From: a bacterium
Lineage (GTDB): Bacteria > Patescibacteriota > Minisyncoccia > Minisyncoccales > GWA2-46-15
Length of the DNA: 64,000 nt
Reading direction: 5' to 3'
NCBI GenBank assembly: GCA_030704795.1
Contig: JAUYCZ010000028.1
Location: 19,202 to 83,201 of the forward strand
Under the pieces are notes generated by a model that was not told the DNA's origin, did not search any database, and worked only from the letters and a program-made list of their open reading frames with translations. The position numbers and the translations under genes are program-made. This document shows positions 8,455-59,885 of the stretch, in pieces (position 1 is the stretch's first letter; each line of letters starts with the position of its first letter).

Positions 8455-8460
8455 TTCCCG

Positions 8461-8525
8461 TCATTATTCATTTTTAATATTGTCATTACTCATTTTAATA
8501 TTGTCATTATTCATTTTTAATATTG
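8461..8525. repeat. Tandem repeat of 22, 21 and 22 bp
   Basis: TCATTATTCATTTTTAATATTG at 8461-8482, 8483-8503 (1-nt deletion, 1 substitution) and 8504-8525. The third unit encodes the last obg codons and its stop. Confidence 0.9.
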
Positions 8526-9466
8526 TTCAAGATTTTTTCTACCTTTTTCAGACTTTTCGGATCATTGACGGAGATGGCCATGACCCGGGGATCTATTTTT
8601 TTGAGTGCTGATAATTTTTTATTGAGCTCGGCTGGCGTAACCAGGTCGCTTTTTGTCAGAAAAAGACGCTCGGGCTTTTCAAGAAGCGCCATGTTCCACG
8701 CGCCTAGTTCTTTACGGATAGTCTCATAGTCTTTCAAAGGATCGGAAGATTCCGCGGAAATGAGGTGGAAAAGAATATGCGTCCGCTCAATGTGGCGGAG
8801 GAATTTGATACCCAACCCCCGGCCGCTTGATGACCCCTCGATAAGCCCGGGAATATCGGCGAGAATGAGTTCGTAGTAGGCGCCCAGGTTGGGTTCAAGC
8901 GTGGTAAACAGATAATTGGCGACTTTGCTTTTGGCATTGGTGAGCTCGTTGAGCAAGCTTGATTTGCCGACATTCGGTAATCCCACCAAGCCGATATCGG
9001 CAATAAACTTGAGTTCGAGCCGGAAGGCAAAATTCTCTCCGGGCAGACCCGGCTGCGCAAACCGCGGCGTCGTGTTGGTTGAAGAACGAAATTGGAAATT
9101 ACCTTTTCCGCCCAGACCGCCTTTGGCGAGGAGGATCCGCTCGCCGGTCTTTTCAAAATTAATTTCGCGGCCGCTGATAAGATTGTGGGCGACAGTTCCA
9201 ATAGGAAGTTTTAGGATGAGATCACCGGCGTTGTAACCATCGCGGAACTGGCCGCGGCCGTCCCGGCCGTCCTCCGCCGAAAACACCTTTTTAAAGCGGA
9301 ACTGCCGGAGGGCGGTAAGATCGGAGACGCCTTCGGCATAGACGCTGCCGCCTCGGCCGCCCGACCCGCCGACCGGCCCGAGGCTTTTCATGTTTTTATT
9401 AAAGGCCACCGCGCCCTTGCCGCCGTGGCCCGCCCTTATTTCTATTTCGACGTCGTCAATCAACAT
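8507..9466 (-). CDS. obg: GTPase Obg
   Basis: Gly-rich Obg fold (AGHGGKGAVAF, GGSGGRGGSV) and G1 motif GLPNVGKSS. Confidence 0.9.
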   Translation of the reverse strand: MLIDDVEIEIRAGHGGKGAVAFNKNMKSLGPVGGSGGRGGSVYAEGVSDLTALRQFRFKKVFSAEDGRDGRGQFRDGYNAGDLILKLPIGTVAHNLISGREINFEKTGERILLAKGGLGGKGNFQFRSSTNTTPRFAQPGLPGENFAFRLELKFIADIGLVGLPNVGKSSLLNELTNAKSKVANYLFTTLEPNLGAYYELILADIPGLIEGSSSGRGLGIKFLRHIERTHILFHLISAESSDPLKDYETIRKELGAWNMALLEKPERLFLTKSDLVTPAELNKKLSALKKIDPRVMAISVNDPKSLKKVEKILNNIKNE

Positions 9467-25405: not shown

Positions 25406-25419
25406 CATCAAAAGAAAAA

Positions 25420-25446
25420 GTCGGACATCGCATGTCCGACTTTTTA
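25420..25446. terminator. Bidirectional hairpin terminator (sequence recurs at 55010)
   Basis: GTCGGACAT-CGC-ATGTCCGAC plus TTTTT, between convergent genes. Confidence 0.75.
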
Positions 25447-26988
25447 TGATTTGAACTTCTCCAGAGCTTGCCGGCAGAATTCCTCATGGCCGGGATAGAC
25501 ATTTCTGGTTTTCATTTCGTCTAGTTTCAAGAATTCCATCTTCTGGCCTTCAAAGCATTCTGTTTTTTGTTGCCCGTCGTAGACGGTCCAGAAAATGTGG
25601 CGCGTGATCTTCTGGCCGCCCGGCAGAGAATAAACTTCTTCGGCCAAAAGACTTAAAGAATCAGCCTCGTAGCCCGTTTCTTCTTTTAACTCGCGGCGCG
25701 CGGCGGTTTCGGGTTCTTCACCCACCTCGACTTTGCCGCCGGGCAGGCACCAGCAATTCGGAAAAACGATATTAACTTTATTATCCCGGTGTTGCATCAG
25801 GACGGCGCCGTCTTCTCTGATCAAAATCACGCCGGCTGATTTCAACCCTTCTTCTTTGGCAAAACCCAGTTGTCCGAGCAACAAGAGGCCTAAAGCCCCC
25901 CAGACAAAGGCTAAAATCCAATCAGGGCGGGAAAGATTCATCAAAGGAATTAGGGTTAAAGCGGCCAAAAAAGACCCCGAATGAAGAGCGATTTCTCGGG
26001 CCAGGAAAAACTCCAGACGCTTGGTCTGGACCGCCGTATAATAGCTCAGACGGTCTAAAGGGATCCAGATGAAAATTCCGACTAATTCATAAATCAAATT
26101 AACCGAGAAAAGGAAAAACGGTCCGCCGAAAAACGGGCGGACCAGCCAGTTGATAAAGTTCAAAGGAACGCTCCAGCGGAAAACTTTGTTGCCAAAACGG
26201 TCCGTTAGCTTGCCGGCCGCCATCAATAAAATAAATGAAGCCAGGAGCGAGACCGAGGTGATGGCGCCGAGGAATTGGTAAGAACCGATGAGAAGGAAAA
26301 CATAGAGCGGCCAGATAATGTCATAGACCTGGGTGGTGATACCCGCGCCGAAATAGCCCAGAAAGAGACGAGGCATCTGTTTAAAAGGCAGGTTTTCTTT
26401 CAGGGTTTTTAAAGAAATATCCGGAAACTTGAATTCATACTTATCGAAGAAAAGAGGGAAACCCGAAATGATAATCAGGAAAAGACCCAATAAATAAAGA
26501 GGGGTAAAACCGGCCGTTTGAATGATTAAGCCGCCGATGATCGGTCCGGCAATAACGGCGAGTTTGGCCACGAGGCTGATTCGGGCCGCGTCCTGGCCAA
26601 AGTTCATTTTGTGATCCGAGCCAACAACGCTCAGATGAAACGGCAACCAATAAAGGGGCACCGCCAATCCCCAGAAGATGGCCGCCCAAAGGAAAAAGAC
26701 AGGATTTCTTTCGGCCAGAATTAAAAAAATAATGAAGAGGGCGCGGGGAATGGTTCCGGAAAAAGCAATCCAGTCTGAGCCGAACTTGGCCACCAAGCGG
26801 GCAATCGGCAAGGTAAAAACCACGATGGTCAGATTGAAAACCAAATAGAAGGCCAGAACCCAGCCCAATCCCTGGGTAATCTTAAAGATGTAGAGCGGGA
26901 TGAAGATTCCCACCAGAGAAAAGCCGAATTGCAGCAGAAAGTTGCTGGCATATAGACCGCCCAAACCAGGCAAGAAGATCCTTTTCAT
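25444..26988 (-). CDS. MFS-type transporter fused to a C-terminal NUDIX hydrolase domain
   Basis: About 12 TM segments, then the Nudix box GGKVEVGEEPETAARRELKEETGY. I prefer the ATG at 26988; the track start at 27069 is GTG. Confidence 0.7.
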   Translation of the reverse strand: MKRIFLPGLGGLYASNFLLQFGFSLVGIFIPLYIFKITQGLGWVLAFYLVFNLTIVVFTLPIARLVAKFGSDWIAFSGTIPRALFIIFLILAERNPVFFLWAAIFWGLAVPLYWLPFHLSVVGSDHKMNFGQDAARISLVAKLAVIAGPIIGGLIIQTAGFTPLYLLGLFLIIISGFPLFFDKYEFKFPDISLKTLKENLPFKQMPRLFLGYFGAGITTQVYDIIWPLYVFLLIGSYQFLGAITSVSLLASFILLMAAGKLTDRFGNKVFRWSVPLNFINWLVRPFFGGPFFLFSVNLIYELVGIFIWIPLDRLSYYTAVQTKRLEFFLAREIALHSGSFLAALTLIPLMNLSRPDWILAFVWGALGLLLLGQLGFAKEEGLKSAGVILIREDGAVLMQHRDNKVNIVFPNCWCLPGGKVEVGEEPETAARRELKEETGYEADSLSLLAEEVYSLPGGQKITRHIFWTVYDGQQKTECFEGQKMEFLKLDEMKTRNVYPGHEEFCRQALEKFKS

Positions 26989-38620: not shown

Positions 38621-38654
38621 TGATCTATCTTATATCATTTTCCATAAATCAAAA

Positions 38655-38677
38655 AGAGGGGTGGGTAGTCCCCCTCT
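38655..38677 (-). terminator. Rho-independent terminator
   Basis: AGAGGGG/CCCCTCT stem, followed on the minus strand by TTTTTGATTT. Confidence 0.65.
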
Positions 38678-38685
38678 TTGTTTTG

Positions 38686-39006
38686 TCACGCGGGCGTCAA
38701 TTCGGTTCTGGCCCAGTTTTCGATTTCCTGCCATTGGGCGCGATCGCCGGTGGCGCGGATTCTGGATAGGGCTGTGCCGACTTTGTCATCGGTCATGTTA
38801 AATACCCTGGCCTCGAATACCTCGGCGCGGATTCCGGTGAGTATATTCCGGCCGAGGTGCCAGCGGATTGATTGAACCTGATCCTCGTTTAGCGTAGCGG
38901 TTCCTCCGAGCCCCAGGGCTACTTGACCGTGGATGGCTTGAAGAAGTTCCTCTGCGCTGCCCCCATTAACGGCTAGGGCGTTGAGCGCATCAGCTATTCC
39001 GTTCAT
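38686..39006 (-). CDS. GC-rich orphan protein (106 aa)
   Basis: ATG at 39006 preceded by AAGGAG. Lies immediately 3' of tRNA-Val. No motif recognised. Confidence 0.5.
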   Translation of the reverse strand: MNGIADALNALAVNGGSAEELLQAIHGQVALGLGGTATLNEDQVQSIRWHLGRNILTGIRAEVFEARVFNMTDDKVGTALSRIRATGDRAQWQEIENWARTELTPA

Positions 39007-39071
39007 GGATTTCTCCTTTCTCCCGCTACCCTCGGGGATGTGTGAAGGTTCTGTTCCTCCTTTTTGACCAG

Positions 39072-39143
39072 TGGGCACTACAGGGATCGGACCTGTGACC
39101 TCTGCAATGTGAGTGCAGCGCTCTGCCGCTGAGCTAAGTGCCC
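39072..39143 (-). tRNA. tRNA-Val (CAC)
   Basis: Acceptor GGGCACT/AGTGCCC and anticodon loop CTCACAT. The T-loop reads TCCGATC, with C where the near-universal U55 is expected. Confidence 0.75.
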
Positions 39144-39224
39144 GGGCTACTACTTTCTCATTTAAACCTATTTGTTTTTGCCTGTAAAGAGGTATAATAT
39201 TTCAATAGGTTTAAATGAGAAAAG

Positions 39225-39266
39225 ATGAAAATATTTGAATTTCATTTTAATCCCCACCTTCGCTAA
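39225..39266 (+). other. Duplicated gene-start remnant / 13-codon uORF
   Basis: ATGAAAATATTTGAATTTCATTTTAATCCC (MKIFEFHFNP) closely matches the true start at 39315 (MKVFEFIFNP). It stops at the TAA at 39264-66. Confidence 0.5.
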
Positions 39267-39314
39267 ACCTGCCTGCCGGTCAGGCAGGGCTACGGCGGGC
39301 AGGCCGATAATTAT
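39255..39314. repeat. GC-rich palindromic insert (family 2)
   Basis: Contains CCTGCCTGCCGGTCAGGCAGGG (39268-39289). The related perfect palindrome lies at 57746-57765. Confidence 0.65.
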
Positions 39315-41288
39315 ATGAAAGTCTTTGAATTCATTTTTAACCCTGGCGATAAACAAGACTTATTATTTGACAGCTTTTGCTATGAGCCCGGTAGCTCCCA
39401 AGAGCAAAAACTCGGGAGTCTTTATATTATCGGCGAGCTCAAGAATGCCCTGCCTCAGGATTCGAGACTTATCAATAATCTCGCCTTTCTTCTCAAGAGA
39501 GAATATTACTCCGGCTCTTCAGCCGAAGCGACTTTGAAAAAGGCTTTGAAAAAGGCTAATGATTTTCTTTCGGAAAAGACCAAGCTGGGCAATGTCAGCT
39601 GGCTGGGTAATTTATCCTTGACGGTTATTAGTTTGCACGATCTCGACCTGATCTTTAGCAAGGACGGAAAAACTAAAGTTCTTTTATTGAGACCCGGTCA
39701 CATTACTGATATCGGCAAAACCCTGGAAATCGAGGAATTTGAGCCTTATCCTCTGAAAATCTTTACCAATATTGTTGGCGGTAAATTTTTAGAAAACGAT
39801 AAGATTATCGTTCTCACCGAAGAGGTTTTTGAGTTTTTTTCCAAAACCGCTCTTCTGGAAAAAATCTCTCTGGCGCCGGACCAGAAAGCTCTGAAAGAAT
39901 TATTTCAAGACAAGGAAAAGGAATTTTCCCACCTTCGGGGTATTTGTTTTTTGCTTTTCTTGACCAAAGAAATCTCCCCCAAAAGCGAATTAATCTTCAA
40001 AAAAATGGCCACTCCCCTTTCTTTGAAAGATGTTTTTTCTCCCACTCAACGATTCTTTTCCGCCTTCAATCAATCGCTAAGGAGAATTTTCTCGAAACTC
40101 GATTTTTCTAAATTAAAATTAAAACTATTAAACGGAGTAAGTCTGCCCAAGATAAACTGGCCACAATTAAAGGTTTCAGACTTTAAGTTATCTCTTGAGT
40201 GGGAAAACAAAGAAGCGAGAAGAAATCTCCTTTTGATCTTTATCTTGGTTTCTTTTTTGATTCTGGGCTTTCTTTTTGCCCAGAAAGAAGAAGAGATAAA
40301 GGCCCGGAGTTTTCGCGATCGCTTGATCAGCCTTCAGGAAAAAGTTGTTAAAGCCCAAGGCTATTTGGCCTTAAGCCAAAACGAAAAGGCCAACAATCTT
40401 TTTAAGGAGGCTTTCGAAGACACCTTGCCCTTGAGCAGCGAAAATAGCTCGGTTAGCAAAGAAGCACTCGTCTTGAAGGCCCTGGTTGAGAAAAACCTCG
40501 TTGGCCTGAGCCAACTAGAAGAGTTGCCGGATCCCAGGCTCTTATTCTCTTTTGCCAATCAGAATTTTGTTCCTCAGCACTTGGTTGTTTTGGATAAGAC
40601 ACTTTACTTTTTCAGTCCTTACGAAAGAGAAATCGTCAAACTGGTTTCCGACCACGAATTGGAAAGAATCGGGGTCGATGAGGGTTTCAGCTTTGCCGTT
40701 CCCGGCAACAGAGAAATAATCCTGTTTACTAAGCCCAATAAAATCTCTTTCCTGACCGACGATAAGATTGAACTAGCCTTTTCTTTGAAGCTGCCCGATG
40801 CCGAAACGAGCTTTGCCGGCCTCTCCTCTTTTAAAGGAAGCTTGTATTTTCTCGAGAAGGGCACGGGCAAAATTTTTAAATATCAATATCCTTTAGCCAT
40901 CAACCGAGAAGAGCCCCAGTCATGGATTCAGGCCGGAGAAAGAAAGCCCTTAGGGGCGAGGTCGATCGGCGTCACGGGTTCTGTTTTTATTCTTAGCGAA
41001 GACAATTCCATTTGGGAATACCAGGCGGGCCAACTAAAAAAAATTATGAATTTATCGGTTTTTCCCTTTCCCAAAAGGCTGATAAAGCTGGTCATTTGGC
41101 CGCCTTTTTCCAGGTTTGCCATTTTAGAACCTTCAGAGAAGAGGGTTATTCTGATTAATCGATCCGGGTCACTGATCAAACAATTCCGGAGCGAGAAGTT
41201 TCTCGGCCTAAAAGATGCGGCTTTTTCTTCGGACGGTAAGTTCTTGTATCTTCTCAGCGGCCTGGAGGTTTACCAATTGGAGCTGTAG
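39315..41288 (+). CDS. Hypothetical membrane protein (657 aa)
   Basis: Central TM segment LLLIFILVSFLILGFLFA and a C-terminal beta-rich region. Function not recognised. Confidence 0.5.
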   Translation: MKVFEFIFNPGDKQDLLFDSFCYEPGSSQEQKLGSLYIIGELKNALPQDSRLINNLAFLLKREYYSGSSAEATLKKALKKANDFLSEKTKLGNVSWLGNLSLTVISLHDLDLIFSKDGKTKVLLLRPGHITDIGKTLEIEEFEPYPLKIFTNIVGGKFLENDKIIVLTEEVFEFFSKTALLEKISLAPDQKALKELFQDKEKEFSHLRGICFLLFLTKEISPKSELIFKKMATPLSLKDVFSPTQRFFSAFNQSLRRIFSKLDFSKLKLKLLNGVSLPKINWPQLKVSDFKLSLEWENKEARRNLLLIFILVSFLILGFLFAQKEEEIKARSFRDRLISLQEKVVKAQGYLALSQNEKANNLFKEAFEDTLPLSSENSSVSKEALVLKALVEKNLVGLSQLEELPDPRLLFSFANQNFVPQHLVVLDKTLYFFSPYEREIVKLVSDHELERIGVDEGFSFAVPGNREIILFTKPNKISFLTDDKIELAFSLKLPDAETSFAGLSSFKGSLYFLEKGTGKIFKYQYPLAINREEPQSWIQAGERKPLGARSIGVTGSVFILSEDNSIWEYQAGQLKKIMNLSVFPFPKRLIKLVIWPPFSRFAILEPSEKRVILINRSGSLIKQFRSEKFLGLKDAAFSSDGKFLYLLSGLEVYQLEL

Positions 41289-42339: not shown

Positions 42340-42365
42340 GATATATCGGGCTACTGCCCGCTATA
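42340..42365. repeat. TATAGCG-hairpin-CGATATATC motif (family 4 copy)
   Basis: GATATATCGGGCTACTGCCCGCTATA, in the rplJ 5' region. Confidence 0.6.
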
Positions 42366-42470
42366 AAAAACTGCGGGTTTTGCCGCAGACAAGAGAAAAT
42401 AACCTTTTTCACCTAAGCAGGGAATTAAGCCTTACGGCACCCGCTGTCTACGGCGACTGAAATCATCCTA
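42365..42470 (-). promoter_or_regulatory. Possible ribosomal protein L10 leader with attenuator hairpin
   Basis: The minus strand reads GCCGTAGACAGCGGGTGCCGTAAGGCTTAATTCCCTGCTTAGG, then CTGCGG-CAAAAC-CCGCAG plus TTTTTT (42388-42365). The position upstream of rplJ fits. Confidence 0.45.
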
Positions 42471-42476
42471 ACAGAA

Positions 42477-43109: not shown

Positions 43110-45335
43110 ATGAAATTAAGTTTGAATAAGAAAAAATGGCTGAGTCTGGTCTTGGCCGCCCTCTTTCTGACATTCCTGGCCAGTTTTTATCTGCAGCATC
43201 AGCTCGTCTCGCTTTATCGCCAGCAAGCCTCCTCTTTGGTCGAAGACCGGGAAGGTCGTGTTATTGCCATCCGGCCCAATCGCCAGGGATATTTTAACCG
43301 TCCAGTTGTTAATCTGCCCGCTAGGATGGCCGATCTTTTAGTTAAAAAGGAAGACCGATTTTTTTACTACCATAACGGCGTCAACCCGATTAGTATTATC
43401 AAAGCCTCTTTTGGCTATTTAGGGTTGGGCCAGAGAAAGGCCTCAAGCACCATTAGCCAACAGTTGGCCAAAATTCTTTTAGGCAACGAGCTGCGGCGAA
43501 CCGGGCAGAATAAACTCAAGGAAACCCTCTACGCTTTGAGTCTGGAGATTTTCCAGCCCAAGCGAGAAATCTTGAAAATGTATGCCAACTCCATTTATTT
43601 TGGCTATCAGGCCCAAGGGATCTTTGAGGCCAGCCGTCTTTACTTTGGGACCGATCCCGAAATGCTCACCGAGGGGCAGGTCTTACAACTTTTAGCCACG
43701 ATTTCTGAACCGGCCGAAAACAATCCCGCCAGCGAGAATAATGAGAAAATCAGTTTAGCCATGGCTAAAAAATTCATTTTTTCTGAAGAAGGCTTGAGTT
43801 TCAGTCAAGCTGGCCAAGTCAGAGAGCAGATGAAAAAGGTTTCGCATGCGGACGATCTTTTCTTCGAATTAAAATCGTTTTTGACGGAGCCGAAAACAAT
43901 TTGCCAAACGACCTTAGACCGAGATCTGACCAGAAAAATCAGAGAAATAGTCCAACGGAACATCGAAAGCTTAAAGATAGAGAATGCCCGGAACGCGGCC
44001 GTGGTAGTTTTAAAGCTGCCCGAAAATGAGATTTTGAGTCTCATCGGTTCGCCCGATCCCAATTCCTTTGAGTCGGGTTATCAGATTAATATGCTGATGG
44101 AATTGCGACCCATTGGCTCTACCATTAAGCCTTTTATCTATCTCAAGGCCTTTGAAAAAGGGTTGAGGCCCTATACCCTGGTTGAGGATAGAGAGTACAA
44201 ATATATTACCGCCTTAGGTTTCCCTCTTTATCCTAAGAATTTTGACTATCAATACCGCGGCCGGGTCAAACTTAACTACGCCCTCTCCAATAGCCTGAAC
44301 GTGCCGGCGGTCAAAGTCCTGGAATACGTCGGTTTGGAGGATTTCTATCAATTCTGGGGAAAGGAAATGGGCTTTAAACCGAAGCAGCCCTGGAACAGCT
44401 ACCAGCTAGGTATTGCCTTGGGGGGTTTGGAAATGAGCCTCTGGGACCTGGCCAGATACTTTACCATCTTTCCCAACCAGGGCTGGCTGAAAGACGTTAA
44501 GGTTTTTCAGTCGGGAGACTGTTTTCAGCCAAAGCCAGAAACAACCAAAGAGATTGCCCAACCCGGTTTCATCCAGCTGGTCAACAAGATTCTCAATGAC
44601 CGCCAGACCGGCGTGGAACAGTTCGGCATGAAGAGCGAGCTCAATCTCTTTCAGGAAAACTATGCCCTAAAGACCGGCACTTCGCGCGATTTCAGGGACA
44701 GTTGGATTATTGGTTATACCCCCGACTTCCTGGTCGGTGTCTGGGTAGGCAATGCCGACAACTCTCCCACCGACAAGATTTCTGGCCAACAAGGCGCGGG
44801 CCTGATCTTTTCCAATATTATGGAGCTGCTCTTGAATTCCCGATACAACTCATCGAGCCTGAAGGCTCCTCAGAGCCTGAACGGCAAAAAAACTCCTTTT
44901 GACTTCAGTCTCGTCAAAGATTTCCCATCCCTCGAGGGTACTCGGGACTTTCAGTCCCTCGACTCGGCTCGGGACTTTCAGTCTGATCAGGGCCTTGATT
45001 GGGGTCTCCAGGGTGACGATTATAAGAAAACCCAAAATCTTTTATTGGCGCAAGATACTGCTTTGATATTATTGCCGCACGACGGAGATTCTTTTCTGCT
45101 CGAGCCCAATACTAAAATCATCCTGCGCGCCCGCCAGGCCGTCGACTGGTTTGTTAACAACGAGTTTATCGGTCACGGCCAGGAGCAGATTTTCATTCCC
45201 CCGACTCCCGGCAACTATCAAGTCAAAGCCCAATCCCCCACTAGTCAGGCTGAAAGTCCCGAGTATCCACGAGGGGCTGGAAGCCCCGAGCGCTCCCGAG
45301 GGGAGGAAGTTTCCATTTCTGTCCTGGGCGAGTAG
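43110..45335 (+). CDS. pbpC: Bifunctional class A penicillin-binding protein, PBP1C-type
   Basis: GT51 motifs EDRFFYYHNG and STISQQLAK. Transpeptidase motifs STIKPF, SNS and KTGTS. C-terminal BiPBP_C-like segment W.VNNEFIG...PGNYQVKA. AAGGAGG RBS. Confidence 0.85.
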   Translation: MKLSLNKKKWLSLVLAALFLTFLASFYLQHQLVSLYRQQASSLVEDREGRVIAIRPNRQGYFNRPVVNLPARMADLLVKKEDRFFYYHNGVNPISIIKASFGYLGLGQRKASSTISQQLAKILLGNELRRTGQNKLKETLYALSLEIFQPKREILKMYANSIYFGYQAQGIFEASRLYFGTDPEMLTEGQVLQLLATISEPAENNPASENNEKISLAMAKKFIFSEEGLSFSQAGQVREQMKKVSHADDLFFELKSFLTEPKTICQTTLDRDLTRKIREIVQRNIESLKIENARNAAVVVLKLPENEILSLIGSPDPNSFESGYQINMLMELRPIGSTIKPFIYLKAFEKGLRPYTLVEDREYKYITALGFPLYPKNFDYQYRGRVKLNYALSNSLNVPAVKVLEYVGLEDFYQFWGKEMGFKPKQPWNSYQLGIALGGLEMSLWDLARYFTIFPNQGWLKDVKVFQSGDCFQPKPETTKEIAQPGFIQLVNKILNDRQTGVEQFGMKSELNLFQENYALKTGTSRDFRDSWIIGYTPDFLVGVWVGNADNSPTDKISGQQGAGLIFSNIMELLLNSRYNSSSLKAPQSLNGKKTPFDFSLVKDFPSLEGTRDFQSLDSARDFQSDQGLDWGLQGDDYKKTQNLLLAQDTALILLPHDGDSFLLEPNTKIILRARQAVDWFVNNEFIGHGQEQIFIPPTPGNYQVKAQSPTSQAESPEYPRGAGSPERSRGEEVSISVLGE
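44929..44982 (+). repeat. Family-1 repeat, 2 x 27 bp tandem, in frame in pbpC
   Basis: CCCTCGAGGGTACTCGGGACTTTCAGT followed by CCCTCGACTCGGCTCGGGACTTTCAGT. These encode SLEGTRDFQ and SLDSARDFQ. Confidence 0.85.
45250..45303 (-). repeat. Family-1 repeat, 2 x 27 bp, inverted orientation, in frame in pbpC
   Basis: CTGAAAGTCCCGAGTATCCACGAGGGG matches the reverse complement of 44929-44955 at 24 of 26 positions. The second unit is more diverged. Confidence 0.85.
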
Positions 45336-55004: not shown

Positions 55005-55009
55005 AATAA

Positions 55010-55029
55010 GTCGGACATCGCATGTCCGA
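55010..55029. repeat. Second copy of hairpin GTCGGACATCGCATGTCCGA
   Basis: 20 of 20 nt identical to 25420-25439. Lies between the pcm stop and the mltG start. Confidence 0.85.
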
Positions 55030-55656
55030 TCATTTATTTATTAAAGGTACAAAAATGAATCCTGGATATTCGCGTTTTTCGAATTCGTTTTCGCTCTTTT
55101 TGGTGAATAACCAAATTGAGTTTTGGATCGGCGTCACGATCCGGCCGCCGATTTTCAGTTGCTTTTTCCAAGCCCGGGGCAGTTTTTCAGTCTCATCTTG
55201 AAAGCTAGCCGAAACAAGAATCTTGTCGTACGGCGCTTCTTTCTCGTACCCCTTTGATCCGTCAGCACAAATAATATTGACTATCCCCTTTTGGACAAAG
55301 CCATATTTATCGACATTTTTTATGCCGAATTGGGCTAACTCCGGCACGATTTCCATTCCGATAACTTTGCCCTTTAGCCCGACAATCTCGGCTAGTAATG
55401 CTGTCGTATAGCCGGACCCCGAGCCGATGTCCAATATTTTTTGGCCCGGCTCCGGTTGCAGCAATTCCAGCATAAAAACCACCACCAAGGGTTGCGAAAT
55501 AGTTTGTTCGTGTCCGATGGTCAGAGCTTCGTCGAGCTCGGCCAAGTCCTTGAGATCTTCCGGAAGGAAATCAACCCGTTTGATTTTGCGGAAAGCTTCA
55601 ATTATCCGCGGCGTTTTAAGCCAGTCCTGGGAAATAAGCGAGTCAATTAAATCCAT
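55030..55656 (-). CDS. pcm: Protein-L-isoaspartate O-methyltransferase
   Basis: TISQPLVV and the SAM motif ILDIGSGSGYTTALLA. Confidence 0.85.
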   Translation of the reverse strand: MDLIDSLISQDWLKTPRIIEAFRKIKRVDFLPEDLKDLAELDEALTIGHEQTISQPLVVVFMLELLQPEPGQKILDIGSGSGYTTALLAEIVGLKGKVIGMEIVPELAQFGIKNVDKYGFVQKGIVNIICADGSKGYEKEAPYDKILVSASFQDETEKLPRAWKKQLKIGGRIVTPIQNSIWLFTKKSENEFEKREYPGFIFVPLINK

Positions 55657-57068: not shown

Positions 57069-59885
57069 TTATTGTTTAAGAATATCCCCCAGTCGTCTGA
57101 TGGCCTCGCCGTAGGTTGCCCAGTCGCCATCCCTTTGCGCTCGGAGCGCTTCCTCGTACGCCCCCAACGCTCTGCGTCTGCGCTCCTCCATATCCCTCGG
57201 GGCTGAGTCCTCGGGACGAACGCCTTGAGAGGGCTTTACTCCTGCTTCACGGCCAGCCGGCCGAGGCAGGCCAAAGATTTTCGCCAGCCCCTCTTCGAGC
57301 GTCTCTTCCATGGCAATTTTATTTTCATAGGCCACCACCACCCGTTTTAACTCGGGAATTTTTCCGGCTTGGGCCTTGAGATAGAGCGGACGCACATACA
57401 AAAGCGATTCTTCAATCGGAATGACCAAAAGCGGACCTTGGATTACTTGCGACCCGCCTTGGCTCCAGAGCGTAATCTGCTGACTAATCTCGGAGTCCTG
57501 ATTAATCCTACCGATGATTTGTTTGGGTCCGAAGACGAGCTTGTCTTTAGGAAAACGATAGACCGATAACTTGCCGTAATTTTCCCCATCGTTGCGGGCG
57601 ACCATCCAAGCGGATAAGTTGTCTTTTGCCCGGGGAGTAAAGGGCAGCATTAAAATATATTCCTCTTTCTTCTCGCCCGGCAATTTCATAATGATGTGCC
57701 GTGGTTGCATCGGCGGGATGCCGCCCGCGGATGTTCCTGCCTCCGCCTGCCTGCCGGCAGGCAGGGCAAGCGGGCCTTCTCCTTCTGAGGCAATAGTGGG
57801 GATTTCCCACTGGTCCTCTTTGTTGTAAAAAATCTGAGGATCGTCCATATGATAGACAGAATAAACGGCCGTCTGCAGGGTAAAGATATCCTCGGGATAG
57901 CGCAGATGGGGAACCAGGCTCTCGGGCATCTCTGACATCGGCCGGAATGTTCCGGGAAAAATCTTGCCATAAGTTTTGATAATCGGATCCTCTGTATCCG
58001 CCTGATAGAAGACAACGCTGCCGTTATAGGCGTCAACCACCGCTTTGACCGAGTTTCTGATGTAGTTTATATTTCCGCCGTTTAACCGCATCGGCTGCGA
58101 ATAAGGATAACGGTCGCTGGTGGTGTAGGCATCAACAATCCAGTAGACCTTGCCATCAGCGATGACAATATATGGATCTCGGTCAAAGGTTAAAAACGGC
58201 GCGATCTTGGCCACCCTATCGGCAATGGTGCGGTAGTAGAGAATGCGGCTCTCTTGGATTATGTCGTTGGACAAAAGCAGTTTAAGCGACTGGAATTTCA
58301 CCGCGTAAAAAACGCGTCTTAAAAAAGAGCTTATCTCCACCCCGCCCTTACCTTCATATGTCGCATAGACATTTTCTTCGCCCTTGGGGTAGTCAAACTC
58401 GCGGGATTTTGTTTTGGTAATGACATAGTCGTTTGAAAGCTCGCCGAAATAGATTTCCGGGCGCGAAATTTCAAGCTCTTTCACGTCTGATTTGGGCGGC
58501 AAATCTTTAACGAACAAAACCGGCAGTCCTTCCGGGGTAACTTGATTGACCGGTCCGGCGGCCACGCCGTAGCCGTGCGTAAATGTCAGCCGCTCGTTAA
58601 TCCAATTTCTATTCGGCAGGCTGGCCGAAGCGAGCTCCCGGGGGGAAAGCATAATCTGGCGAATTTCTCCGTCGATGATATAACGATCATTATCAACTTC
58701 GGCAAACTCGTAATAGGTTCTGATTTCTTGTATCTGGGAAAAAGTTGATAAAAGGGGTTTTCTGTCCCAAAGCCGTACATTTTTGACCGTGAGATTATTG
58801 TTCGCGATATCAGACACGGTGATCGGTTTATCTCCCGAGATTTCCCGTTCCTCAATTTTATCAAGCGCAAACCCCTGACGGGTAGCGGCGATATTGTGCT
58901 CAATAAACGGCGTTTCTTTTACGAGCTCGTTGGGGGCGACAATCAATTTTTGGACAAGAAACGGAATCATTGCTCCGGCGAACCCAACGACAACAGATAA
59001 AGAAACGGCTCCGATCAGCGGCGCTAACCTTCCTTTCCACGCCCAAAGAGCCGCCGAGACGGCCGCGAGCACGACCGTCGCCATTGAAATCCAAAGCATG
59101 AATATTCTCACGGTTGCGTCCGTATATGTCGCGCCGAAGACTAAACCGCTTTGGCTCGTGAGCAGCGCAAAACGGGAAAGATAGATTTCGGCGGCAATGG
59201 TTGAAAGAAAAATGGCTAGTAAGATGCCAAGATGGATTCTTGCCCCGCGGTCTATTTGTATATCATTAAGTGATCGTGCGTTTGCGATATAAAGCATGCC
59301 TCGCAAAAAATAGATGATCGCGCAACCGGCGAGCGATAAGAGAATGAGGAATTTTATCAACCCCAATCCTATTTGAAAGACCGGGAGAGAGAACAGGTAA
59401 AAACTGATATCCTGGCCAAAGACGGGATCGGCCGCGCCGAAAGCCGTGCTGGAAATGTATTTCAGCATCTCCGGCCAACTGAGAGCGGCCACTAGTCCGA
59501 AAAAAAGCGCGACGATCACGCTCAAGACAACGGCCGATTTTTTAATCAGGCGACCGTCTACCTCCATCGGCCGGTCGGAGGTCCCGAGTATCCCCGAGGG
59601 ACCGATCAACGCCGCCGGTAAAACCGCCGTCCACCCTGAGCTCTTCGAATGGGTTGAACGAAGCGCTAAAAAGAAGTTGGCGAGCAAAAAAACTGCGGCA
59701 AAAATTCCCGCTGACGAAAATAAGGCTATTTTAGCGAGGAGAGATTTAATAAAGATTTGCGTGTGGCCAACCTCGGAAAACCACCACCAATCAGTAACAA
59801 AGTCAACAATGCCTGGAAGAAAAACAGAAACAGCGAAAAACGCGATGATGACGAAAAGCTTTGTTGTTTTAAATCTGTTCATCAT
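57069..59885 (-). CDS. UPF0182 family membrane protein
   Basis: 938 aa. N-terminal TDWWWFSEVGH and several TM segments, then a large soluble region typical of UPF0182 (COG1615). Confidence 0.65.
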   Translation of the reverse strand: MMNRFKTTKLFVIIAFFAVSVFLPGIVDFVTDWWWFSEVGHTQIFIKSLLAKIALFSSAGIFAAVFLLANFFLALRSTHSKSSGWTAVLPAALIGPSGILGTSDRPMEVDGRLIKKSAVVLSVIVALFFGLVAALSWPEMLKYISSTAFGAADPVFGQDISFYLFSLPVFQIGLGLIKFLILLSLAGCAIIYFLRGMLYIANARSLNDIQIDRGARIHLGILLAIFLSTIAAEIYLSRFALLTSQSGLVFGATYTDATVRIFMLWISMATVVLAAVSAALWAWKGRLAPLIGAVSLSVVVGFAGAMIPFLVQKLIVAPNELVKETPFIEHNIAATRQGFALDKIEEREISGDKPITVSDIANNNLTVKNVRLWDRKPLLSTFSQIQEIRTYYEFAEVDNDRYIIDGEIRQIMLSPRELASASLPNRNWINERLTFTHGYGVAAGPVNQVTPEGLPVLFVKDLPPKSDVKELEISRPEIYFGELSNDYVITKTKSREFDYPKGEENVYATYEGKGGVEISSFLRRVFYAVKFQSLKLLLSNDIIQESRILYYRTIADRVAKIAPFLTFDRDPYIVIADGKVYWIVDAYTTSDRYPYSQPMRLNGGNINYIRNSVKAVVDAYNGSVVFYQADTEDPIIKTYGKIFPGTFRPMSEMPESLVPHLRYPEDIFTLQTAVYSVYHMDDPQIFYNKEDQWEIPTIASEGEGPLALPAGRQAEAGTSAGGIPPMQPRHIIMKLPGEKKEEYILMLPFTPRAKDNLSAWMVARNDGENYGKLSVYRFPKDKLVFGPKQIIGRINQDSEISQQITLWSQGGSQVIQGPLLVIPIEESLLYVRPLYLKAQAGKIPELKRVVVAYENKIAMEETLEEGLAKIFGLPRPAGREAGVKPSQGVRPEDSAPRDMEERRRRALGAYEEALRAQRDGDWATYGEAIRRLGDILKQ
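57194..57217. repeat. Family-1 repeat core in the UPF0182 CDS
   Basis: CCCTCGGGGCTGAGTCCTCGGGAC, encoding part of VRPEDSAPRD. Confidence 0.55.
57746..57765. repeat. Family-2 perfect 20-nt palindrome in the UPF0182 CDS
   Basis: CCTGCCTGCCGGCAGGCAGG, within the segment LALPAGRQAEAG. Confidence 0.8.
59581..59600. repeat. Family-1 repeat core in the UPF0182 CDS
   Basis: GTCCCGAGTATCCCCGAGGG matches 45257-45276 at 19 of 20 positions. It encodes GPSGILGT. Confidence 0.8.

Follow-up and report, generated by a model that had tools for sequence, protein, structure and literature searches.

Nested hairpin-forming repeat elements and a diverged second start at the beginning of a conserved Patescibacteria gene

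Results

Layout of the gene start

A 64-kb stretch of DNA from a Patescibacteria metagenome-assembled genome (MAG), which we call the window and whose positions are used for all coordinates, contains a conserved gene for a 657-aa protein. The beginning of this gene is present twice, and a GC-rich block lies between the two copies. The protein (MDP2927018.1 at NCBI) has its nearest relatives in Candidatus Wildermuthbacteria. It has an N-terminal alpha/beta domain (labelled PPM-type phosphatase in UniRef), a long helical middle (residues 299-352 onwards) and a C-terminal six-bladed NHL-like propeller, and Pfam found no domain in it. The features of the locus are as follows.

39071-39143, minus strand: tRNA-Val(CAC) gene (ARAGORN, Rfam), its 5' end facing the promoter of the 657-aa gene
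39154-39172, unstranded: left arm (19 nt) of a perfect inverted repeat that brackets the promoter, present in relatives too
39191-39198, plus strand: -10 box GGTATAAT of the putative ancestral promoter, predicted from sequence
39204-39222, unstranded: right arm of the inverted repeat, a new inverted copy of 39154-39172
39225-39254, plus strand: copy 1 of the gene start, ATGAAAATATTTGAATTTCATTTTAATCCC, peptide MKIFEFHFNP
39225-39266, plus strand: upstream open reading frame (uORF) MKIFEFHFNPHLR followed by TAA, the ancestral gene start, 13 codons
39253-39267, plus strand: 5' half of a family A element, CCCACCTTCGCTAAA, placed by the consensus and sharp ends of 119 copies and by frame logic
39268-39288, unstranded: family B element CCTGCCTGCCGGTCAGGCAGG, lying within the family A apical loop, placed by the sharp ends of 121 copies
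39289-39304, plus strand: 3' half of the family A element, GCTACGGCGGGCAGGC, placed by the consensus of aligned copies and by folding
39305-39314, plus strand: AT-rich spacer CGATAATTAT, 10 nt, between the element end and the second ATG (ATG2)
39315-39344, plus strand: copy 2 of the gene start, ATGAAAGTCTTTGAATTCATTTTTAACCCT, peptide MKVFEFIFNP
39315-39372, plus strand: divergent 5' tract, consisting of copy 2 and codons 11-19 (GDKQDLLFD)
39315-41288, plus strand: gene for the 657-aa conserved Patescibacteria protein

Copy 1 and copy 2 are offset by exactly 90 nt and share the same frame. They are identical at 23 of 30 positions without gaps, and at 25 of 30 if a -1/+1 T indel pair is allowed. 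The frame that opens at the first ATG (ATG1) reaches TAA at 39264-39266 after 13 codons, and ATG2 follows 48 nt past this stop. A reading made earlier from the sequence only had reported both the 30-nt repeat 90 nt upstream of the gene start and the end of the upstream copy after 13 codons inside the insert, and both were confirmed. The same reading had described the intervening 60 nt as one GC-rich palindromic element. The block is GC-rich and does contain a palindrome, but it is a composite of a 31-nt unit, a 21-nt unit nested in it and the 10-nt spacer. Its G+C content is 62% (70% for the 50-nt element part), as compared with 47% for the window. The local alignment score between the two flanks of the block was 16, which was reached by only 0.04% of 5000 pseudo-sites in the window, and the exact palindrome CCTGCCTGCCGGTCAGGCAGG was matched in 0 of 100 shuffles of the window. 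The spacer CGATAATTAT is part of neither family A nor family B, and the relatives have nothing that corresponds to it.

Two families of very small repeat elements

The GC-rich block was shown to consist of two very small repeat elements, each able to form a hairpin and one nested in the other. From the alignment of 119 copies, the family A unit is 31 nt, CCCNC-CTTCGCYAARGCTWCGGCGGGCARG-C, and the information content, about 2 bits within the unit, falls off to about 0 at either end. The variable pyrimidine and purine positions covary (C-G, 76 copies; T-A, 37; T-G, 4; C-A, 2), and the unit folds into a hairpin with a 6-bp GC stem and an apical 2-bp stem. The flanks of the 119 copies contain no conserved target motif. 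The family B unit is 21 nt, CCTGCCTGCCGG-N-CAGGCAGG, with 8-bp arms; it was found on at least 120 metagenome contigs, and its ends are sharp in the alignment of 121 copies. At our locus, the family A unit is split at its apical loop by the family B palindrome CCTGCCTGCCGGTCAGGCAGG.

A pattern built from the family A copies in the window and in a distant orthologue (L003, described below) matched at least 120 loci in GTDB genomes. Among the matches listed, the hosts were Patescibacteria, Omnitrophota, Acidobacteriota, Verrucomicrobiota/PVC, Bacteroidota, Proteobacteria, Nitrospirota and Chloroflexota, and all 80 of the 80 record titles shown were MAGs, with no cultured isolate. Copies are near-identical in both families, in genomes of many uncultivated phyla for family A and in metagenome contigs for family B. 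The sequence-only reading had taken the palindrome for a dispersed repeat, which proved right, and had made its model depend on the existence of copies beyond the two seen in the window; such copies exist, since the families are widely dispersed. Its suggestion that other palindromes be inspected for flanking duplications also led to a positive result, with direct repeats enriched in both families. Flank repeats with a score of at least 9 accompany 8.4% of family A copies against 0.7% of pseudo-sites, and 14.5% of family B copies against 0.37% of pseudo-sites. In copies elsewhere, such repeats measure 9-20 nt, directly adjoin the elements and mostly form parts of heptamer arrays (L249, L175, L214 and others).

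The window has one copy of family A and two copies of family B, all of them inside genes or at a gene start. The second family B copy, CCTGCCTGCCGGCAGGCAGG at 57746-57765 (unstranded), lies in-frame (LPAGRQA) in the UPF0182 gene at 57069-59885 on the minus strand. At about half of the low-GC loci, family A lies within long open reading frames (ORFs), in six frame/orientation combinations. Essential genes are often among its in-frame hosts, which include ValRS, IleRS, LeuRS, UvrA, RecR and LigA; compared with PDB 3vdp, RecR is longer by 13 aa where it holds the element. L015 (Omnitrophica) has three copies in tandem, with a period of 32 nt, and copies directly abutting tRNA genes were observed in L016, L042, L101, L115 and L123.

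Only 10 exact family A cores were found in IMG/VR, and the matches in plasmids of cultured bacteria were all partial and at chance level. These results do not support viruses or plasmids as the main vehicle. A search of 39144-39450 against Rfam, with both gathering and permissive thresholds, gave no RNA family beyond chance-level matches. Two Logan contigs, L259 and L260 (sequencing run SRR13727536), both end inside the element, exactly at variable positions of family A, namely N in CCCNC and W in GCTWCGG. These contig ends alone suggest that a second copy of the composite, family A with family B nested in it, exists in this sample, in which case the composite would propagate as a unit. No other such composite was present among the 120 family B metagenome hits listed.

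Close relatives carry the empty site

The closest relatives available for comparison were L001/L002 (88% protein identity) and L261/L262, of the Wildermuthbacteria GWA2_46_15 lineage. They share the tRNA-Val gene and the promoter with the window, and continue as TATAAT-attttaag-ATGAAAATATTCGAGTTTCATTTTAATCC-GGGGGCAAAACC..., so that the site reads promoter-ATGAAAATATTCGAGTTTCATTTTAATCC-GGGGGCAAAA without the insert and without a second start. The insert is absent in 3-4 independent assemblies of the closest relatives; since L261 is almost identical to L001, these represent one distinct relative lineage in effect. As compared with the relatives, the window has 18-19 extra nt at 39203-39220 and the block from 39254 onwards. 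The earlier proposal of an insertion event was thus borne out by the empty-site comparison.

Copy 1 equals the family consensus MKIFEFHFNP, and differs from L001 by three synonymous and no non-synonymous changes. H7, conserved in at least 90% of homologues, is replaced by I7 in copy 2. Copy 2 matches each orthologue start at 21-23 of 30 positions, while distant orthologues match one another at 23-28 of 30. From these comparisons, copy 1 appears to be the ancestral start and copy 2 the aberrant one.

The stop codon arrived with the element

The C/G allele of family A has no stop codon in any of the six frames, while the T/A allele has TAA in the 'RLR-Q/stop' frame. Where the 'RLRQGFGGQ' frame occurs in ORFs of at least 150 codons, only the C allele is found (6/6). 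The copy in the window is the exact T/A allele, CTTCGCTAAA...GCTACGGCGGGCAGG, in the RLR-Q/stop frame, and its Y-A-A gives the TAA at 39264-39266. This indicates that the stop arrived with the element and not by later mutation. With this allele in this frame, the ancestral ORF halts after 13 codons and the old start is now a uORF.

The insertion point is directly after codon 10 (TTTTAATCC|) of the conserved gene. The orthologue L003 (about 39% identity) carries CGCCTTCGCCAAGGCTTCGGCGGGCAAGC, a family A element, in-frame at the identical nucleotide and without a duplication. Other GC-rich inserts directly behind AATCC were found in L004, L255 and L256, and the linker is expanded at the codon-10 site in 21 of 111 homologues. 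Roughly one orthologue in five has a GC-rich insert of some kind here. In the AlphaFold model (mean pLDDT 84.6), residues 2-8 and 17-23 are strands with a loop between them, and the insertion site after P10 would lie in the loop of this first beta-hairpin. The other inserts, the expanded linkers and the modelled strand-loop-strand arrangement together indicate that the loop is permissive. Because the family A flanks have no conserved target motif, we attribute the hot spot mainly to selection; transfer between orthologues via the conserved flanks possibly contributes in part.

GC-rich sequences within genes were observed at two other places as well. The clpB gene of L001 has a 48-nt GC-rich in-frame insert, ATTGACCCGTTCGACTCCGCTCAGGGTCAATCCTGAGTCAATCGAAGG (L001:1813-1860; window equivalent 37898), which is not in the window. 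It is a reciprocal example of the gain or loss of small elements, and such insertions are still happening in this lineage. A 741-aa ORF of the window (43110-45335) has GC-rich in-frame repeats at 44929-44986 and 45245-45302 (PSLEGTRDFQSLDSARDFQS and ...AESPEYPRGAGSPERSRGE), which form a 58-nt imperfect inverted repeat and resemble the codon-10 insert of L004.

Promoter and predicted expression

The sequence-only reading had placed a likely promoter upstream of copy 1. The -10 box GGTATAAT was found there, at 39191-39198, and the same promoter is present in the relatives. The distance from the -10 box to the ATG is 8 nt in the relatives, which suggests that their mRNA would be leaderless, and 26 nt to ATG1 in the window. 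In this genome, only 5 of 46 ORFs have a Shine-Dalgarno sequence, and in many genes a -10 box precedes the ATG by 7-9 nt.

The right arm of the inverted repeat accounts for the difference in distance, as the relatives lack 39203-39220. The two arms match at 19 of 19 positions, which points to a very recent templated event, and the DNA fold of the repeat has z = -6.6. The relatives have a quasi-palindrome at this place (TTTAAGATGAAAA against TTTCTCATTTAAA), and the right arm looks like a very recent template-switch 'correction' of it. The intergenic 60 nt at 39144-39203 show at most one mismatch to L001, whereas other intergenic regions are about 15% diverged (P = 6e-4). This near-identity is ambiguous, as it fits either a strongly constrained bidirectional promoter or a recent exchange. 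Promoter identity as a sign of recent transfer was dropped when most 60-nt windows of the gene proved to be 93-98% identical to L001, and was partly restored by the 15% divergence of the other intergenic regions.

Transcription would most likely still begin at the ancestral promoter. The mRNA would then carry, in this order, ATG1 with the 13-codon uORF, UAA, a hairpin, 11 AT-rich nt and ATG2. A hairpin of -25 kcal/mol is predicted for the RNA of 39268-39303, between the uORF stop and ATG2, and the RNA around ATG2 is predicted to be unstructured. ATG2 would be used without a Shine-Dalgarno sequence, like most genes of this genome. The earlier claim that the downstream ATG provides a functional start agrees with its position at the head of an intact, conserved 657-aa ORF, and ATG2 is probably the working start.

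Origin of the second start

Divergence from L001 is concentrated at the 5' end of the gene. The tract at 39315-39372 is 70% identical to L001, as compared with 89% for the rest of the gene, and identity is 97% again from 39375. For codons 1-19, the proportion of synonymous differences (pS) is about 1.0 and that of non-synonymous differences (pN) is 0.16, against 0.28 and 0.05 in the rest of the gene, and the excess is significant (binomial P = 1e-5 to 8e-5). The divergence extends 28 nt past the duplicated part, to 39372, so that it includes codons 11-19, which were never duplicated. Further low-identity patches (63-78% identical to relatives) lie at 40035-40150, which holds 21 extra nt, at 40455-40570 and at 40635-40695, and for this reason we regard the gene as a recombination mosaic. 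The pattern of a diversity-generating retroelement was considered and rejected, because in the inspected alignment the differences between L001 and copy 2 were not adenine-only.

We consider it probable that the nested elements broke the old ORF and that a diverged second start, likely acquired via recombination at the element, keeps the gene whole. On this view, the gene stays whole because the diverged copy of the first ten codons restarts reading after the stop. A recent duplication that postdates the divergence from L001 cannot explain copy 2, since the synonymous sites of copy 2 are too diverged and sequence that was never duplicated is diverged too. The second start would have been placed by a recombination whose left joint was the repeat element and whose right joint was the conserved TTTGACAG... 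(DSFCYEP). This could have happened by an exchange between element copies at different positions, or an older allele with the start-element-start layout may have introgressed from a more distant relative. An insertion-linked duplication may have built the arrangement originally, in another lineage. Recombination at the element is the likelier origin as compared with target duplication; how the second start arose is inferred, and is less certain than the presence of the elements. A donor of the second start could be traced by the sequence CGATAATTATATGAAAGTCTTTGAATTCATTTTTAACCCTGGCGATAAACAAGAC.

Several points weigh against this explanation. No donor with the N-terminus MKVFEFIFNPGDKQDLL was present among the 120 homologues listed, and copy 2 is about equidistant from all orthologues examined, so that a simple import from a typical orthologue fits poorly. 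An exchange between element copies requires a parent with a second element copy just upstream of an ATG, and no such layout was seen. No more than 19 codons underlie the divergence statistics, and the direction of the mosaic is not settable because L001 and L261 are near-identical. The enrichment of flank direct repeats in families A and B keeps an insertion-linked duplication alive as the source. The use of the promoter, ATG1 and ATG2 is read from the sequence.

Alternative explanations

The sequence-only reading had explained the locus by an insertion with a long target duplication. In this model, the element transposed into the gene in this lineage and produced a target-site duplication (TSD) of 30-40 nt, whose downstream copy then diverged in place. 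We regard this as unlikely, although it retains more weight than the other alternatives. Copy 1 stops exactly at the left boundary of the element and the relatives are empty, and the abutting direct repeats are enriched in both families as described above. In RecR of L069, the 13-aa (39-nt) insertion holds a 31-nt element flanked by a 13/15 direct repeat. Templated rearrangements do occur at the present locus, as is evident from the perfect inverted duplication of 19 nt that lies 30 nt upstream. The long target duplication is in part supported. On the other hand, copy 2 does not have the properties of a simple recent TSD. The repeats of a transposon abut the element, are identical and have a fixed length; here the left repeat abuts, but 10 unrelated nt separate the sharp right end of the element from copy 2, the copies differ at 7 of 30 positions, and the length is 30 nt against 9-20 nt, mostly in heptamer arrays, in other family members. 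L003 has the same element at the same site and no duplication. Moreover, the excess divergence spans the 28 never-duplicated nt with saturated synonymous sites, and copy 2 is an outlier, whose distance to any orthologue exceeds the distances among distant orthologues.

The arrangement might instead be an evolved regulatory leader, in which the uORF would load ribosomes and termination by the hairpin would control access to ATG2. This appears doubtful. It agrees with the intact copy 1, which has only synonymous differences from L001, with the promoter region of 60 nt that has hardly diverged, and with the hairpin, which starts 2 nt past the uORF stop. However, a recent rearrangement alone predicts the same pattern, the 5' hairpin around ATG1 is weak (z = -1.1), and the arrangement occurs in no relative, so that there is no conservation to test.

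Slightly less probable again is the capture of a foreign fragment, consisting of the element, the 10 nt and the first ~19 codons of a divergent orthologue, by homology-facilitated illegitimate recombination. Its right end would be anchored in the DSFCYEP-coding sequence and its left end at a CC(C) microhomology after codon 10. The right edge of the divergent tract is indeed sharp and lies at conserved sequence, the gene is a mosaic, the junction is GC-rich with an overlap of 1-2 nt, and the spacer resembles AT-rich sequence upstream of the ATGs of other orthologues. However, the left joint would have to coincide by chance with both the exact element end and the codon-10 hot spot, no donor was found among the homologues listed, and natural transformation is not established for this lineage.

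It is very improbable that assembly joined two loci or strains via a shared repeat. The two Logan contigs are independent, though from the same run, and cover both junctions. Both break inside the element at variable positions, which suggests another composite copy in the sample, but they overlap by 25 nt over the unique, locus-specific joint of family A and family B and agree with the MAG. In addition, the shared stretch of about 36 nt would be shorter than ordinary reads and typical assembly k-mers and should be spanned, and the gene would otherwise lack the promoter context found in relatives. An assembly artefact is therefore unlikely, as both junctions are confirmed in the two contigs.

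Programmed bypass or stop read-through, which would fuse both copies into a product with HLR-X-TCLPVRQGYGGQADNYMK, was rejected on codon logic and deserves almost no credence: although the copies share a frame and are separated by a single stop followed by a hairpin, the take-off codon CGC has no CGC/CGU landing codon and TAA comes right after the only CGA, the product would have a duplicated N-terminal strand, ATG2 and a standard N-terminus are intact, and the matched take-off and landing codons that surround the stop-plus-hairpin gap in bypass of the T4 gene 60 type are lacking here.

Other features of the window

Beside the 3' end of the tRNA-Val gene, 38621-39070 has no similarity to relatives (blastn against L001). 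This segment holds a 106-aa ORF with a GGAG Shine-Dalgarno sequence, and the relatives carry a different 70-aa ORF in its place; it may be a small variable islet at the tRNA gene. The 657-aa gene is directly followed by rplJ-rplL, which are encoded on the opposite strand, an order kept in distant orthologues, and upstream of rplJ-rplL is a ribosomal protein L10 leader (RF00557, 46.9 bits, 42355-42471, minus strand). A terminator-like hairpin, AAAAAGTCGGACATCGCATGTCCGACTTTTT, occurs at 25415-25447 and 55005-55037, with 88% identity and about 30 kb apart. A perfect 24-nt direct repeat, GTCATTATTCATTTTTAATATTGT, is located in an intergenic region at 8460-8483 and 8503-8526, with 43-nt spacing.

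Discussion

Significance of the locus and of the elements

The locus is a clean natural case of a conserved gene that survives a stop-bearing insertion, with a relic uORF and a second start that takes over, and the empty sites in close relatives permit direct comparison. It also matters for annotation, as the true ancestral start differs from the working start. Similar GC-rich inserts that candidate-phyla genomes carry in aminoacyl-tRNA synthetases, RecR, UvrA, LigA and ClpB are genuine insertions and should not be taken for errors.

We tentatively raise the possibility, in which we have less than even confidence, that families A and B form a class of mobile DNA, at most 31 nt long and so far undescribed, that spans phyla. 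Such elements would retain nearly the same sequence from Patescibacteria and Omnitrophota to Acidobacteriota, Verrucomicrobiota, Bacteroidota and Proteobacteria, reside in-frame in essential genes, nest in one another, seed flank repeats and serve as portable recombination joints that remodel gene ends; at this locus, a stop-bearing allele would have forced relocation of the start. The identity of the elements across phyla is the most surprising and least explained feature. If the elements are mobile, several questions become approachable with existing metagenomes: which enzyme moves so small an element, how phylum boundaries are crossed, and to what extent such elements drive protein-loop variation and recombination in streamlined genomes.

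Comparison with known systems

The elements behave like repetitive extragenic palindromes (REPs), Rickettsia palindromic elements (RPEs) and the small dispersed repeats (SDRs) of cyanobacteria, and fall outside the defining tags, sizes or lineage limits of each. A limited literature search returned no description of families A and B or of start relocation by such an element. The kind of element is thus known, while the two families and the start relocation appear undescribed.

RPEs have a length of about 100-150 nt, and we know of no description of start-codon relocation for them. They are palindromic repeats that lie in-frame in functional protein-coding genes and are tolerated at permissive sites (PMC3733652). 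The in-frame residence of family A in ValRS, IleRS, LeuRS, UvrA, RecR and LigA, and of family B in the UPF0182 gene, is similar. However, RPEs are longer and have been described in Rickettsia, while the range of family A covers many phyla, and the CGTC end tag of RPEs is absent from families A and B.

REPs, which occur dispersed in genomes, are GC-rich, imperfectly palindromic sequences of 20-40 nt; some lie in genes, including those for replication and repair, and one end of a REP or REPIN bears a tetranucleotide tag, GTAG or CGTC (PMC3733652). An imperfect palindrome of 20-40 bp that can fold into a hairpin is also what families A and B have in common. Their ends are CCCN.../...ARGC (A) and CCTG.../...CAGG (B), without a terminal tag, and GTAG occurs only inside family A, on the minus strand of the W = A allele. 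REPs and REPINs are mobilised by RAYT transposases, of the Y1 HUH type. REPs are also high-copy, mainly extragenic and species-specific, whereas one A and two B copies were found in the 64 kb here, in genic positions, and copies are near-identical across phyla. Miniature inverted-repeat transposable elements are 70-300 bp, with terminal inverted repeats of 15-30 bp derived from an insertion sequence (IS) element (PMC3733652); our elements are shorter (21 and 31 nt), and their arms measure 6-8 bp.

The elements appear to resemble SDRs in size, hairpin, nesting, genic location and heptamer-array flanks. The SDRs of Nostocaceae, the subject of Elhai et al. 2008 (Genome Res 18:1484), are reportedly compact hairpins of 21-27 nt that nest and that lie in genes and in heptamer arrays, and they are said to be possibly mobile without an obvious transposase. 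The sequences of the two groups appear to differ, and family A is found in many phyla whereas SDRs have been reported only in Nostocaceae (PMC5861425).

In integrative elements with a surrogate gene end, the displaced original end lies beside a diverged replacement end and the gene stays functional. Our locus similarly has a displaced old gene end and a diverged working end, but the two ends are just 60 nt apart, with neither an integrase nor cargo. Repetitive hairpin-forming elements are also present in sponge mitochondria (PMC2800124). With these and the mobile GC clusters of organelles, families A and B share the GC-rich hairpin form and the invasion of AT-rich genomes, coding regions included; the clusters differ in being organellar, in having an unrelated sequence and in their presumed mechanisms.

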